Numbered from the whole stretch's first letter, positions 7,139 through 56,850 are shown. The stretch: DNA of 62,340 nucleotides, filler included, from 5 parts of 5 records of this genome joined end to end with filler, not necessarily neighbours in it; one strand, 5' to 3'. The notes: generated from the sequence alone by a model not told the origin. Numbers and translations are program-made.

Positions 7139-7238
7139 NNNNNNNNNNNNNNNNNNNNNNNNNNNNNNNNNNNNNNNNNNNNTTAATTAATTAANNNNNN
7201 NNNNNNNNNNNNNNNNNNNNNNNNNNNNNNNNNNNNNN
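7139..7238. other. artificial contig-joining spacer
   Basis: 44 N + TTAATTAATTAA (stops in all six frames) + 44 N; GC content and gene style change across it. Confidence 0.98.
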
Positions 7239-9072
7239 CCGCACCCATTACCGGTCCGGCGGATTGTTTTCGCACAATTAAAAGAAATGGAAAAACGACC
7301 AGTGCTAAAATGATCAATAGCAGCAGCAATTGAGGCGCGAATAGAGATTCATGAATGGCTCCCGACCGGTTTTTGTTATTTTCATTAGTCGGCGCTCCCT
7401 GGACATAACTTGATAGAGCAAAACCATATAGAATCGCCGAAGGCCTGTCATCCAGATTTACGCCGGCGGTTGTCCGGGAAATGCTTTTTGCATAATCGTC
7501 TAGAACTGGTTGCGATGATTCCTGGCCGAAAAGGGAGATTTTTTTCTCCAGCACGCCGTCGAACAAGCTTTCAAAATAAACCACAGCCTGCTCCGGTGAC
7601 AGAGGCGCCCGGGTAATATGGCCGTTTTCTTCGATTTCCAGGTAAGGAACCGCATCCGGTCTTTGGGATATTCTTTCAGCAAGAATTTGGGGATCCAGGC
7701 TTAGGTTATCTTTTTTTTCAGAAGCGATAAGCAGGCCGCCGAAGATGGGGGCGGCAATTGAATGGGGAAAAACCTGATCCAGGGCGGCTTTGATCGAAGC
7801 TGTTCTACGGGCCATAAGTCTTCCGGTATATATTGAAGAAGCGCCGTAGGACGGCAGAACCAGGCAAAAAGCGCCGTCCGGCGCCAGCGCGCTTTTAACT
7901 TCCATAAAAAATTCCACAGCGGCGTACCTGTTGATCGCCATGTTGTCGGGTTCTGGCAGTATGACCAGAACAAGGTCCCAGGCGTTCTTCCTGGACTGTT
8001 TGACCATTGCCCGGCCATCCATGTTTATTATTTTTAGTTTTGGGTTGCCAGGCGTCAGCAGACCGGCCTTTATCGATATGTCTATGAGCCGGGGATTAAG
8101 TTCGGCGACCGATAAAACTTCCGGATTGTGTTCCAGTATCCGGTCGGGCAAGCGGCTTAGGGTCGCTCCAATAAGCAGAATTTTTTCCGGGGCGGGATGT
8201 TGACCGCACATAATGGCGGCAAGCGGGCGATCGACATTAATATTGTTTTCTTCATCCATGGTCCCGATCAAGCCCGCGTTCTGATAAACGGATACTGGAG
8301 CGTTTTCAGACTTAAGCACAGTCAGGCGACCGTATTTTGTTTCGCTCACTTCATGCAGGGCGAGTCCGGGGATCATTTGCCGCCAACGTGTTTTTTCTGA
8401 CAGAAAATCAAGAGGCGCCGCCAGGCCGCTTATAAGCAGGAGCGCGGAAACAGAGTAATATATAAACGCACGGCCTTTAATTACCAGGTGAACCAGATAG
8501 GTGAACATGGCGCCGCTAACCAGGGCCAATCTGACCGGCTGCCCTATCCATGATCCGATAACGACCATGGCGGCAGCGCCGCCTACCATGGCGCCCACAG
8601 CTTCTGCGCGATAAAAGCGGCTGAAAAAACCAGCCGAAAAAAACCTGAGAACAAGGCTGAACTGAAAACCGGAAAGAAAAGCCAGTGGCGCGACGCCTCC
8701 CAGTGAGATAAAAATAGCTCGATCTAAAGCTATCATCTGTCCGGGAGCAAGCCCGGCATCCCATCCCCAAAGGCGCATGCAAATCAATTGGCCGGCCAGC
8801 ATGGGGCCGTTAAAGAACAAGCTCGTTTTCAGCCATGAAACCGAATTCAGTTTTTGCAAACGGCCTGTTCCTCCTAAAGCGGCGCCCAGGGCGCACCAGG
8901 CCAGCCAGGCAAAAAAAATGGTCCCGAAAAGGAATTCACTGCCGTGGGTCATGGCCAGAATTTCCCGGAAAACAAGAACCTGCCCGATTTGGGAAAAACA
9001 ACCGATCAGGACAAGGCCGAGGGTAGCATTCCTGGAGTCAGGAAGATAATCGTTTTTTTTATTCAGCCCCAT
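7239..9072 (-). CDS. polytopic membrane protein fused to a spermidine-synthase-like SAM-binding domain (3'-truncated)
   Basis: N-terminal TM bundle (QIGQVLVFRE...GSE, YRAEAVGAMVGG); ETKYGRL; ILLIG..., ELNP, MDGR, DLVLVILPEP, EFF...LAPDG pattern; further TM segment at the contig edge; overlaps the upstream gene by 10 nt. Confidence 0.75.
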
Positions 9073-10253
9073 ACCCCGGGTATTTTTGTCCGGCAGTTGA
9101 AACAGGCGCCGCCTTGCAGTTTGTTTTCAAGCACTTTGAAGCCAAGCCGTTTGATGATTGTCTTTCCGCAGCTGGGACAATAGGTGTGATTGGCCGAGTG
9201 CGGGGCCATGTTGGATATGTATACGTATTTCAAACCGGCCTCATGGCCGATATCAACGGCCTGTTCCAAAGTCGATTGAGGGGTGGGAGGCAGCCTTCGC
9301 AATTTGAATTGCGGATCAAATCGCTCCAGGTGCCAGGGCGTGTCAGAACCGAGGTTCTTACTTATCCAGCGGGCTATTTTTTTTAGCGAGCTTATATCAT
9401 CGTTCAAAGTCGGGACTATCAGGGTGGCGACTTCCAGCCACACGCCTTCTTCCCTGGCCAGGATCATTGAATCCAACACCGGCGCCAGCGAACCCTGGAC
9501 GACTTTCCGGTAAAAATCTTCGTCCGCTCCTTTAAAAGTGATGGTTACGGCTTCAAAATGGTTTAGCAGTTTTTTGAAAGGTTTTGAATTAATGTATCCG
9601 GCGGTGCAGAGAGTTCGAAAAAGCCCGCGCTCTCCGCAGAACTGAGCAAAATCGGTTGTAAATTCAGGGCAATAATCTGCTTCGGTATATGTAAAGCTGA
9701 TGCCGCCGATTTTTCTGGCCTTGATGCGGCCGGCCATTTCATCAAAATTGAAAGGTTCTATATTGCGGGTCTGGAGCGGGCTTTTTTGTGAAAACTGCCA
9801 GTTCTGGCAGTAAAGACACCTGAGATTGCACCCGGCATGGGCAATGGACAATACTTCCATTTCCGGGCGAAAATGAGAAAGCGGTCCCTTGCCGACCGGA
9901 TCGATATTAAGCACGCAAGGCCGGCCGTACGCATGGGTTACGAGCTTTCCGTTGATATTCTGCCGGCCCCGGCAAAAGCCGGATCGGCCCGGACCCAGTT
10001 TTTCATTTCTTGGGCATAAACGGCAAATGACGTCGCGACTGCCGGGAATTTTTTCATAATACCAGGCTTCGACCGGGGCGGAAAGTTTGGATGCGCCGTA
10101 GACAATGCCGTCCACTTTTACCGGGCCGAAGATATCAAGGGCTTTCAGGGCTATGGGCGCCAGGGCCGCGGTTAGGCCCAACTTGCCAAGATGTTTAATA
10201 AATAAGCGCCGTTCGGCGGCATCCGTTGTTTTATCTGCTGACATTCTGACCAT
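9063..10253 (-). CDS. amrS: AmmeMemoRadiSam-type radical SAM enzyme with N-terminal twin-arginine-like signal
   Basis: CNLRCLYC radical SAM motif followed by QNW; IDPVGKGPLSHF; TPWHLERF; YVYISN; TYCPSC and CFNC Cys pairs; ERRLFIK plus hydrophobic stretch at the N-terminus. Confidence 0.85.
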   Translation of the reverse strand: MVRMSADKTTDAAERRLFIKHLGKLGLTAALAPIALKALDIFGPVKVDGIVYGASKLSAPVEAWYYEKIPGSRDVICRLCPRNEKLGPGRSGFCRGRQNINGKLVTHAYGRPCVLNIDPVGKGPLSHFRPEMEVLSIAHAGCNLRCLYCQNWQFSQKSPLQTRNIEPFNFDEMAGRIKARKIGGISFTYTEADYCPEFTTDFAQFCGERGLFRTLCTAGYINSKPFKKLLNHFEAVTITFKGADEDFYRKVVQGSLAPVLDSMILAREEGVWLEVATLIVPTLNDDISSLKKIARWISKNLGSDTPWHLERFDPQFKLRRLPPTPQSTLEQAVDIGHEAGLKYVYISNMAPHSANHTYCPSCGKTIIKRLGFKVLENKLQGGACFNCRTKIPGVWG

Positions 10254-10282
10254 TCCATCGCCTGTTTTTTTTAAAATAATAA

Positions 10283-11206
10283 CTATCTCAGTCTTTCTTG
10301 CAGAATGGGAATTATCCTTTTATCAAGAAAATACCGCCCCAACTTGCTCACCTTGGGGCGTTTCTGCATTGGTTTCCGTTTTTCCATCTGTTCGCGTAAC
10401 GAATCGAGTTTGTCTTCCGGTTTTAATTCCGAAGCCAGGTTCTCTTTTTCCATTTCAAAATCCATATCGGACATTGACCTGATCTTTTCCAGCAGCGTAA
10501 GGAGTCGCTCTTTTTCCCGCGCCATTTCTTCTTCGGTCATTTTGAATCTATGTTTGTTGATACGCTCAAGATGACGACCTATTAATTCTTCATTTCTTTG
10601 TTTCCAGGTTTCTTCGGGTATTTCTCTAATGCGTCTCATTATTCGAATCGAACCTTCATTTGAAGAAGCCTGGCCGGCCCGGACAGGATTTTTCAGATCT
10701 TTGGGCGGAATCAGGCAGGGTTTGAATGTTTCAACCACCTGGACCTGTTCCGGCGACAGGATCCGCCGGATTTGGTCTTCAAGGCCTGCATATTTTTTTG
10801 TAAGGTCCCTGCTTATCTGGTTTTGCAATTCCTTGATCTTATTATTAGCCATTACCGCCTGTTTGGGGATTTCTCCCCTGGCCGGGGCGCCTTTTTGAAT
10901 TTCGGCTTTTAACATTTTAAAACTTTTTTCAGCTTCATTTAAGGCGTTCATGACATCGGAAGAGCCCAATGTCGCCTCATTCGTGTATTGTTCGGCTTTT
11001 TTGGCGACTTCAACAAGGCTGGTCATCTGGTCCCTGGTCAGATTAAGCCCATTGATAAGGTTAATGGTTGAAATATCGGCAAATAGTTCCCGGACCCGCT
11101 GACCGGCTTCGCCAAAAGCATTATGCCTGACCGCGGCCGCGGCCTGCCCGGCAGCCATCATAATTACTATGAAGCAAACAATGATTAACAAACCTGTTTT
11201 TTTCAT
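10283..11206 (-). CDS. exported alpha-helical protein with LTxxQ-like motifs (Spy/CpxP-like)
   Basis: Start reassigned to ATG 11206 (GAGGTGG SD); signal peptide ending AAGQAAAA; LNLTRDQ and ILSPEQ motifs; highly charged helical composition. Confidence 0.65.
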   Translation of the reverse strand: MKKTGLLIIVCFIVIMMAAGQAAAAVRHNAFGEAGQRVRELFADISTINLINGLNLTRDQMTSLVEVAKKAEQYTNEATLGSSDVMNALNEAEKSFKMLKAEIQKGAPARGEIPKQAVMANNKIKELQNQISRDLTKKYAGLEDQIRRILSPEQVQVVETFKPCLIPPKDLKNPVRAGQASSNEGSIRIMRRIREIPEETWKQRNEELIGRHLERINKHRFKMTEEEMAREKERLLTLLEKIRSMSDMDFEMEKENLASELKPEDKLDSLREQMEKRKPMQKRPKVSKLGRYFLDKRIIPILQERLR

Positions 11207-11357
11207 TTTGCCACCTCTTTGATTCAAAAGGCTATCAGTGATTTTATCATATTTCAGACAATCCTTTTTGCCGGTATTCCGCCTTTGTCATTACAAGCCT
11301 CAGTCAGGCGAAGACGCCGGGCAATTTTGCTAAAAGACAGATGACGGCAACCTTACC

Positions 11358-11657: not shown

Positions 11658-11674
11658 TAATGGTCTAACCATTA
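11658..11674. promoter_or_regulatory. FadR/GntR-family operator (probable autoregulation)
   Basis: Perfect palindrome TAATGGT-CTA-ACCATTA matching the TGGT-N3-ACCA FadR-subfamily pattern; lies between TTGACA (11635-11640) and TATAAT (11673-11678), 43 nt upstream of the GntR gene. Confidence 0.75.
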
Positions 11675-11717
11675 TAATTATATTCAATGTATTGATAATT
11701 TATGGGCCAAAACTCAC

Positions 11718-14654: not shown

Positions 14655-14754
14655 NNNNNNNNNNNNNNNNNNNNNNNNNNNNNNNNNNNNNNNNNNNNTT
14701 AATTAATTAANNNNNNNNNNNNNNNNNNNNNNNNNNNNNNNNNNNNNNNNNNNN
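14655..14754. other. artificial contig-joining spacer
   Basis: 44 N + TTAATTAATTAA + 44 N. Confidence 0.98.
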
Positions 14755-32468: not shown

Positions 32469-32568
32469 NNNNNNNNNNNNNNNNNNNNNNNNNNNNNNNN
32501 NNNNNNNNNNNNTTAATTAATTAANNNNNNNNNNNNNNNNNNNNNNNNNNNNNNNNNNNNNNNNNNNN
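32469..32568. other. artificial contig-joining spacer
   Basis: 44 N + TTAATTAATTAA + 44 N. Confidence 0.98.
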
Positions 32569-56750: not shown

Positions 56751-56850
56751 NNNNNNNNNNNNNNNNNNNNNNNNNNNNNNNNNNNNNNNNNNNNTTAATT
56801 AATTAANNNNNNNNNNNNNNNNNNNNNNNNNNNNNNNNNNNNNNNNNNNN
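56751..56850. other. artificial contig-joining spacer
   Basis: 44 N + TTAATTAATTAA + 44 N. Confidence 0.98.

Follow-up and report, generated by a model that had tools for sequence, protein, structure and literature searches.

A cassette of three genes, HEL, RSAM and SPE, lies head to tail on the minus strand of one contig (7239-14654; 7,416 bases; G+C 0.50) of the window, the whole stretch of 62,340 bases of DNA analysed here, in which five contigs are joined by spacers (N run / TTAATTAATTAA / N run). HEL encodes a putatively exported helical protein, RSAM a radical S-adenosylmethionine (SAM) enzyme of the AmrS family with a putative leader for the twin-arginine translocation (Tat) pathway, and SPE a membrane protein of the major facilitator superfamily (MFS) fold with an inserted domain like that of spermidine synthase (SpeE) (Table 1). 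HEL and RSAM are separated by 29 nucleotides (nt; 10254-10282), the ends of RSAM and SPE share 10 nt (9063-9072), and SPE has no stop codon because the gene runs into the contig end. This reproduces the three tightly linked minus-strand genes, with both the 29-nt gap and the 10-nt overlap, of the original prediction made for this DNA, which had also reported in RSAM an ERRLFIK motif with a hydrophobic stretch and an intact CxxxCxxC, and had taken HEL for an exported LTxxQ-like protein; all of these features are seen in the translations.

Table 1. Features of the three-gene cassette and of the window around it; positions are counted from the first base of the window.
Feature	Position	Strand	Remarks
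HEL	10283-11206	minus	307 amino acids (aa) from ATG; TTG start at 11227 also possible
Sec-type signal peptide of HEL, residues 1-25	11132-11206	minus	MKKTGLL...AAGQAAAAV; MKKTGLLIIVCFIVIMMAAGQAAAAV; read from translation
Conserved HEL loop, residues 161-180	10667-10726	minus	FKPCLIPPKDLKNPVRAGQA; six of the eleven invariant positions
RSAM	9063-10253	minus	396 aa
RSAM twin-arginine leader, residues 14-38	10140-10214	minus	ERRLFIKHLGKLGLTAALAPIALKA; from translation and homologue conservation
Radical SAM cluster motif, C142-x3-C146-x2-C149	9807-9830	minus	intact; invariant in homologue alignment
SPE	7240-9072	minus	611 aa present; 3'-truncated
SpeE-like (class I SAM-fold) domain of SPE, residues 285-450	7723-8220	minus	PF01564, 35.2 bits, cut-off 22.9
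Candidate promoter-like site, TTATCA-16-TATAAT	11671-11698	minus	10/12 matches; divergent intergenic region upstream of HEL
Spacers	7139-7238, 14655-14754, 32469-32568, 56751-56850

RSAM matches the AmmeMemoRadiSam-system radical SAM family well above its cut-off (NCBIfam TIGR04337; 291.2 bits, cut-off 220, residues 73-395), and it keeps N- and C-terminal Cys pairs, which are invariant among its close homologues. Its closest solved relative is pyruvate formate-lyase activating enzyme (3c8f_A, E 6e-6). About 70 N-terminal residues fall outside the TIGR04337 model, and within them positions 10194-10214 encode E14-R-R-L-F-I-K20, which fits the Z-R-R-x-hydrophobic-hydrophobic Tat motif; after the arginine pair come 12 uncharged residues (24-35; LGLTAALAPIAL) and then K36. 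The prediction had been made to depend on conservation of this pair, which occurs within the first 45 residues of 102 of the 114 proteins with a full N-terminus among the window protein (P0001) and its 120 best homologues. A strict Tat-like rule (RR-x-hydrophobic-hydrophobic, then an uncharged hydrophobic 12-mer) was passed by 85/114 of these proteins versus 13/244 neighbouring open reading frames, five of the 13 background passes being copies of a single gene that recurs in the Armatimonadota form of the cassette; by this rule the RR leader of RSAM exceeds chance. The 85 strict passes share further positions: F occupies +3 in 78 of them, G occupies +11 in 79, P occupies +18 in 62, and a basic residue (K or R) stands at +22 in 41. 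In addition, R15 and R16 are invariant in 40/40 aligned homologues, chosen for a complete N-terminus, and TatC was found in 5/5 searchable cassette-bearing genomes; the genome-level counts given here and below (paralogues, TatC, co-occurrence) come from genomes of relatives.

The three genes also recur together outside the window, though not in every locus. A survey seeded with the enzyme gave 41 genome loci from metagenome-assembled genomes of at least seven phylum-level groups (Thermodesulfobacteriota, Planctomycetota, Aminicenantes, Riflebacteria, Kiritimatiellota, Armatimonadota and Lentisphaerota), and tblastn placed HEL upstream in 34/41 and SPE downstream in 31/41 of them. When all open frames were searched with profiles, and loci were counted only where 1.2 kb or more of sequence was available (two with enzyme fragments were dropped), HEL was found in 30/37 evaluable loci, SPE in 30/35 and both in 25/33, and the gene order and strand of the trio are kept across these phyla. 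A second survey started from HEL and was thereby free of the bias of the enzyme seed; it reduced 80 metagenome loci to 54 non-redundant groups, of which 18 were not evaluable; RSAM adjoins HEL in 27 of the 36 evaluable groups, and SPE follows in 14 of the 24 HEL-RSAM groups with downstream room. The form that lacks SPE often carries two tandem HEL genes. The trio is thus a real and widespread arrangement built on a firmer HEL-RSAM core, with SPE often, though not always, beside it.

Each of five cassette-bearing genomes holds 3 to 5 TIGR04337 genes above cut-off. When 49 distinct core sequences (four duplicates removed) were placed in a rapidly computed maximum-likelihood tree, 38/38 rows from cassette loci form one side of a branch with a Shimodaira-Hasegawa approximate likelihood-ratio (SH-aLRT) support of 99, apart from 11 paralogues of the five genomes; the cassette loci had been retrieved with peptide patterns typical of the cassette clade, and the rows were labelled by locus, without a check of neighbours. 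The rows nearest the clade are five other paralogues, four of them with an RR leader and one (L042) unclear, and six leaderless AmrS paralogues are separated from them by a branch with support 96. In this tree the cassette enzymes are a distinct AmrS clade, spread over several phyla. As a separate observation, a second radical SAM gene (L047:2513-3628, minus strand; PF04055 only) stands beside a Tat-leader AmrS gene and near an SPE gene, and its protein also starts with an RR-type leader (MLTRREFIKG...), suggesting that export leaders may occur on further radical SAM families.

SPE accompanies leader-bearing AmrS generally, beyond the cassette itself. Read from gene coordinates in the five genomes, SPE adjoins 5/5 cassette AmrS genes, 3/4 other leader-bearing ones and 0/6 leaderless ones. 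The association was examined more broadly in 61 genomes drawn evenly from the phylum of one cassette-bearing genome, in which 102 AmrS genes were evaluated (100 above cut-off were fetched, and two loci hold two genes each); the sample left out two AmrS genes truncated at contig ends, G018:C103 and rows below threshold, and four G001 genes were already known. Leaders were called here by a windowed rule accepting RR, KR or RK, and adjacency meant lying within 3 kb of a full-length SPE gene. A leader was found on 11/12 SPE-adjacent AmrS genes versus 22/90 others (Fisher p 1e-5, relatedness ignored), and a full-length SPE gene in 24/26 genomes with a leader-bearing AmrS versus 4/35 without one (Fisher p 1.2e-10, relatedness again ignored). 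One of the two genomes with a leader but no full-length SPE has a partial SPE gene adjacent, three of the four SPE-positive genomes without a leader call hold AmrS genes that could not be evaluated, and 31 genomes of the sample have neither a leader-bearing AmrS nor SPE.

AmrS owes its name to a system with Memo and AMMECR1, and Memo-AMMECR1 systems were reportedly described by Burroughs and colleagues in 2019. It had been suggested that the corresponding genes, amrA and amrB, could lie past the contig break of the window. No Memo-AMMECR1 match lies within the window, whose cassette contig ends inside SPE with the far side unseen; Memo or AMMECR1 is adjacent to the cassette in 0/41 genome loci and 0/80 metagenome loci (0/121), and in the five cassette-bearing genomes the Memo and AMMECR1 genes stand next to other AmrS paralogues. 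As they are never adjacent to the cassette, amrA and amrB are probably not beyond the break, and that suggestion is not supported. Two sister loci have a related composition. One (L056) is an operon in which a NapH-like membrane polyferredoxin is followed by a Sec-signal Memo-AMMECR1 fusion, an AmrS with a Tat leader and an SPE-like protein. The other (L053) has such a fusion, again with a Sec signal, together with an SPE-like protein and an AmrS bearing a Tat leader. These loci resemble the window cassette in the Tat-type leader on AmrS, the MFS-SpeE partner and the presence of a partner with a Sec signal, and they differ in that this last partner is the Memo-AMMECR1 fusion, whereas in the window it is the unrelated helical HEL; HEL thus holds the position of the secreted fusion. 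L056 also has the polyferredoxin, which the window cassette lacks. The polyferredoxin gene (L056:5036-6499, minus strand; Fer4_5 and several 4Fe-4S motifs) is directly upstream of the rest of that operon, and its product is a possible electron route across the membrane.

Full-length SPE homologues have a median of 783 aa, so that about 170 residues are missing from the 611 present in the window, where only the first MFS half, transmembrane helix (TM) 7, the SpeE-like domain and TM8 remain. A model was made for a full-length homologue of 42% identity from a 20-sequence alignment (predicted local distance difference test score, pLDDT, 84.9; predicted template modelling score, pTM, 0.88), and it consists of 7 TM, an alpha/beta domain with a helical sub-domain, and 7 TM. 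Its membrane part matches VMAT2 (9kqa_A; Z 24.2, root-mean-square deviation (rmsd) 3.5, 339 residues) and SotB (6kki_A; Z 22.8, 354/366 residues), MFS matches that stand far above background, and its inserted domain matches SpeE (1uir_A; Z 21.6, rmsd 2.8; Foldseek E 1.6e-9). The best MFS matches are cation and amine antiporters, fold likeness among MFS proteins being uninformative on substrate. The N- and C-terminal membrane halves are repeats of one another (hhalign probability 86%, E 4.8e-6, 167 columns), which indicates a layout of 6 TM, TM7-domain-TM8 and 6 TM, with the domain bracketed by two extra helices. Across 20 SPE members, Lys plus Arg counts are 3.1, 3.0, 1.6, 2.2, 2.9, 2.8, 2.1 and 1.1 in the predicted inside loops and 1.3, 1.7, 0.0, 0.6 and 0.2 in the predicted outside loops. 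The termini of MFS proteins usually face inward, and together with this positive-inside pattern they place the SpeE-like domain, by prediction, on the outer side; this agrees with the extracytoplasmic or membrane-tethered system put forward in the original prediction. SPE scores below the SpeE equivalog cut-offs (NF002956, 50.9 versus 472; NF002010, 33.5 versus 260; NF003380, 28.5 versus 304), and the truncated window copy gives 32.3 bits against the fused MFS/spermidine synthase family NF037959 (cut-off 40). Some distant relatives of SPE (P0314, P0324 and P0332; ~1250-1290 aa) add Fer4_5 (PF12801) and FMN_bind (PF04205), fusions that would join a transmembrane electron module to an MFS-SpeE protein.

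HEL has no Pfam or NCBIfam match at E <= 0.1, and its homologues likewise start with a hydrophobic N-terminus. The LTxxQ-like motifs of HEL, LTRDQ and LSPEQ, stand at helix starts, and the AlphaFold model is all helices (pLDDT 91). A HMMER search of sequence representatives with a HEL family profile gave 1347 matches at E <= 0.001 and 631 at E <= 1e-30; a word-based search found only 133, and the named members of the family are all 'hypothetical', as are the clusters found for HEL in the ESM Atlas ('hypothetical protein' only). Members of 500-670 aa hold two to four matched stretches. Among 50 diverse members eleven residues are invariant (N49, L50, N52, Q60, Q154, C164, P167, P168, P174, G178 and Q179), and the last six lie inside one non-helical loop, the lowest-confidence part of the model (pLDDT 58-82). 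Nearly every HEL copy retains this loop, also where no partner gene is adjacent. Tandem HEL paralogues are frequent, both copies having the Cys loop (L081:4004-5957, L084:4974-6951, L036:4933-6987 and others). The V-R-A-G-Q of the loop was considered as a glycyl-radical motif and not kept, its register differing from that of the R-V-x-G motif. The top structural match of the N-terminal half (residues 47-167) is Spy (3o39_A; Z 6.8, 96/96 residues), followed by a second Spy row (3oeo_A; Z 6.6, rmsd 2.9); as these Z scores are tied with those of many unrelated helical bundles, the likeness to Spy/CpxP is a lead only. Foldseek found nothing in the PDB at E <= 0.001 for HEL, and the HEL profile found no solved relative there below E 0.05.

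On these sequence features, we put the chances at a little better than even that the three genes make up a single operon and that the radical SAM system it encodes acts on the outer surface of the cytoplasmic membrane or farther out. RSAM would fold and gain its iron-sulfur cluster(s) in the cytoplasm and would then be exported folded via the Tat pathway, or anchored by its leader, and HEL would leave unfolded through Sec. SPE would serve as a transporter of the MFS type, with its inserted SAM-fold domain on the outside, and would most likely deliver to the exported RSAM, across the membrane, a small cationic adenosyl compound, either SAM or one of its products. HEL would then be the protein substrate or a helper of RSAM, in place of the secreted Memo-AMMECR1 fusion of the sister systems, and its invariant Cys/Gly loop would be the likeliest site of action. 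The most complete version of this proposal, in which the radical SAM chemistry is extracytoplasmic, the outward-domain MFS transporter hands SAM to the Tat-exported AmrS, AmrS radical-modifies the Cys164/Gly178 loop of a Spy-like HEL, and the sister fusion stands in HEL's place, is improbable when all its parts are taken together. If it held, the whole leader-bearing AmrS branch would be an envelope pathway, with MFS-SpeE proteins as its cofactor supply line.

The observations that weigh against the proposal concern the leader, the gene linkage and the chemistry of SPE. With respect to the leader, 29/114 homologues fail the strict Tat-like rule; failures of one kind are proteins called from an internal Met just past the RR position, and those of the other kind have an acidic residue inside the hydrophobic stretch, which speaks against a simple Tat reading. 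Moreover, the conserved G at +11 and P at +18, positions specific to the family and beyond what a generic signal has, could signal partner binding instead of, or besides, targeting. Both features would suit the main rival explanation, that RSAM stays cytoplasmic and modifies the HEL precursor before Sec export, its RR leader being vestigial or re-used, either to bind a chaperone or to dock on the cytoplasmic face of SPE. SAM and reductant are cytoplasmic. The known radical SAM maturases of exported proteins act in the cytoplasm as well, for example those of HXS (PMC13128918). A cytoplasmic RSAM would leave unexplained both the conservation of the RR leader and its association with a partner predicted to face outward: the arginine pair, the F at +3 and an uncharged stretch ending at a basic residue persist in different phyla, as expected of a working Tat signal, the leader is confined to one side of the AmrS tree, together with export-signal partners and an outward-facing domain, and leaderless paralogues without SPE coexist in the same genomes. 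We regard a cytoplasmic enzyme acting on pre-HEL as unlikely.

A further point is that no clear AxA cleavage site follows the hydrophobic stretch in the translation of P0001, so that the leader may remain as an anchor. RSAM would then be tethered outside beside SPE, its N-terminus inserted by Tat and left uncleaved, in the manner of Rieske proteins. We see in this possibility a version of the best explanation, and the small weight that we give it is a share of the weight given to that explanation. The segment past the hydrophobic stretch (L-K/R-A-L-...) is itself conserved, and the 10-nt overlap couples RSAM tightly to a membrane-protein gene, as an anchor would lead one to expect; on the other side, many homologues have Ala-x-Ala-like sites 20-35 residues past the RR (AHA, AQA, ARA), and an uncharged stretch of ~12 residues is short for a stable membrane anchor.

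With respect to linkage, the prediction had also been made to depend on co-conservation of the three genes; the trio does recur in several phyla, as described above (25/33 loci), but it is not universal, as 9/36 HEL-seeded groups have no RSAM nearby and SPE is not adjacent in 10/24 HEL-RSAM groups. Of the 32 full-length SPE genes in the phylum sample, 17 have no AmrS gene next to them, which implies that the link is often in trans. The SPE profile, too, was built from cassette-linked proteins, and the p values given for the phylum sample take no account of the relatedness of the genomes. The SPE genes away from AmrS and the HEL genes without RSAM, along with Spy as the source of the best structural rows for HEL, would be expected if the linkage reflected gene order and not function, SPE being a general envelope transporter or polyamine-related protein and HEL a general chaperone of the Spy/CpxP kind. 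That explanation, which we hold to be decidedly unlikely, has to contend with an order and strand kept over at least seven phylum-level groups, with cassette genes that overlap or abut, with the co-occurrence of leader-bearing AmrS and SPE by genome (24/26 versus 4/35), and with the invariant loop of HEL, a kind of loop that Spy-type chaperones are not known to carry.

With respect to the chemistry of SPE, the family profile finds solved SpeE structures at 8.9e-27, and alignment to 7xif and 1uir indicated that several acidic landmarks of the SpeE fold are retained. The GGG(D/E)G loop of SpeE is replaced, aligning with G-g-l-l-s in the family and reading G-A-T-L-S-R in the window, and in the D-x-x-D-P box a hydrophobic residue stands for the first catalytic Asp and Glu for the second; in SpeE the glycine-rich loop serves the cofactor. 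Judged by these residues, the SPE domain is not an ordinary aminopropyltransferase, and with the loop and the first Asp lost it may not bind SAM at all. In addition, no electron-transfer gene recurs beside the cassette, and a radical SAM enzyme needs a low-potential donor as well as SAM.

Around the cassette, no fourth gene, such as one for an electron carrier or a SAM-related enzyme, recurs near the full trio, the variants without SPE or the loci with HEL only, where single cases alone were seen. Eight Armatimonadota loci have a longer HEL and an extra gene of ~300 aa between HEL and RSAM (L022:4199-5194, plus strand, and counterparts); this gene belongs to no Pfam family, has an RR-type N-terminus and passes the Tat-like rule in 5/8 loci. 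In one Planctomycetota locus (L017:8233-10592, plus strand), a DNA methylase gene (PF01555) and a NucS-like nuclease gene lie between RSAM and SPE, and this insert looks like a restriction-modification module that landed within the cassette. Two HEL-RSAM pairs without SPE each have a single SAM-related gene beside them (L121:3034-3951 and L122:7820-8734, both plus strand), namely a gene of the SAM hydroxide adenosyltransferase family (PF01887) immediately before HEL and a PNP_UDP_1 phosphorylase gene downstream of RSAM. In the window, genes for a GntR/FCD regulator, an ornithine cyclodeaminase-family protein and a periplasmic binding protein lie upstream of HEL and divergent from it. The promoter-like site in the intergenic region is a candidate only, because such sites are no commoner in this region than in shuffles of it. 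In window order the five contigs have a G+C of 0.42, 0.50, 0.35, 0.34 and 0.475, and given this spread they may not all be of one organism.

Radical SAM enzymes are treated as strictly cytoplasmic because of their requirement for SAM and a low-potential electron and for shielding from oxygen. The cassette suggests that this normally intracellular chemistry may also take place outside the membrane in many anaerobic bacteria, and what appears to be new here is an AmrS-family enzyme with new partners and, putatively, in a new compartment. A branch of AmrS that spans several phyla combines a Tat leader with extracytoplasmic-looking partners and a dedicated, transporter-like companion. It will be interesting to reveal how the periplasm of anaerobes is supplied with SAM and electrons, what roles the long-enigmatic AmrS, Memo and AMMECR1 proteins play, and whether there is an unrecognised class of radical-modified envelope proteins. 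The small size of the cassette, with three genes and a candidate target loop, makes these questions tractable by heterologous expression. A full-text literature search found no paper on an exported or Tat-bearing AmrS or radical SAM enzyme, and secreted forms may already be discussed by Burroughs et al. (2019).

Comparison with known systems sets the cassette apart from each of them. RSAM resembles the AmmeMemoRadiSam enzyme in passing the TIGR04337 cut-off and in keeping the CxxxCxxC motif and the Cys pairs; it differs in the ~70 extra N-terminal residues with their twin-arginine leader and in forming a clade of its own, and its locus differs in having the Sec-exported HEL instead of an adjacent Memo or AMMECR1 (0/121) and an added MFS-SpeE protein. 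Glycyl-radical activases, which act on a loop of their protein substrate, include the nearest solved core, the pyruvate formate-lyase activating enzyme (3c8f_A, E 6e-6), and RSAM matches TIGR02493 with 56 bits; unlike RSAM they are cytoplasmic and leaderless, RSAM scores far below their family cut-offs, and no glycyl-radical enzyme gene is near RSAM. SPE shares with SpeE and NF037959 a SpeE fold joined to an MFS-fold membrane part, but its glycine loop and Asp box are replaced, its scores are below cut-off and its domain sits between the MFS halves with two extra TM helices. HEL is like Spy and CpxP in its export, as far as its signal peptide tells, in its all-helical model, in its LTxxQ-like motifs and in the full coverage of the Spy chains; it is three times longer, carries the invariant Cys/Gly loop and has no Pfam match at the threshold given above, and its Z scores with Spy are no better than those with unrelated helical bundles. 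Finally, the HXS anti-phage system, likened here by its description, also has radical SAM genes beside the gene of the exported protein that they modify, and HxsB, HxsC and HxsD were concluded to act in the cytoplasm before HxsA is exported (PMC13128918). There only the substrate is exported, whereas in the window the enzyme itself bears a leader.

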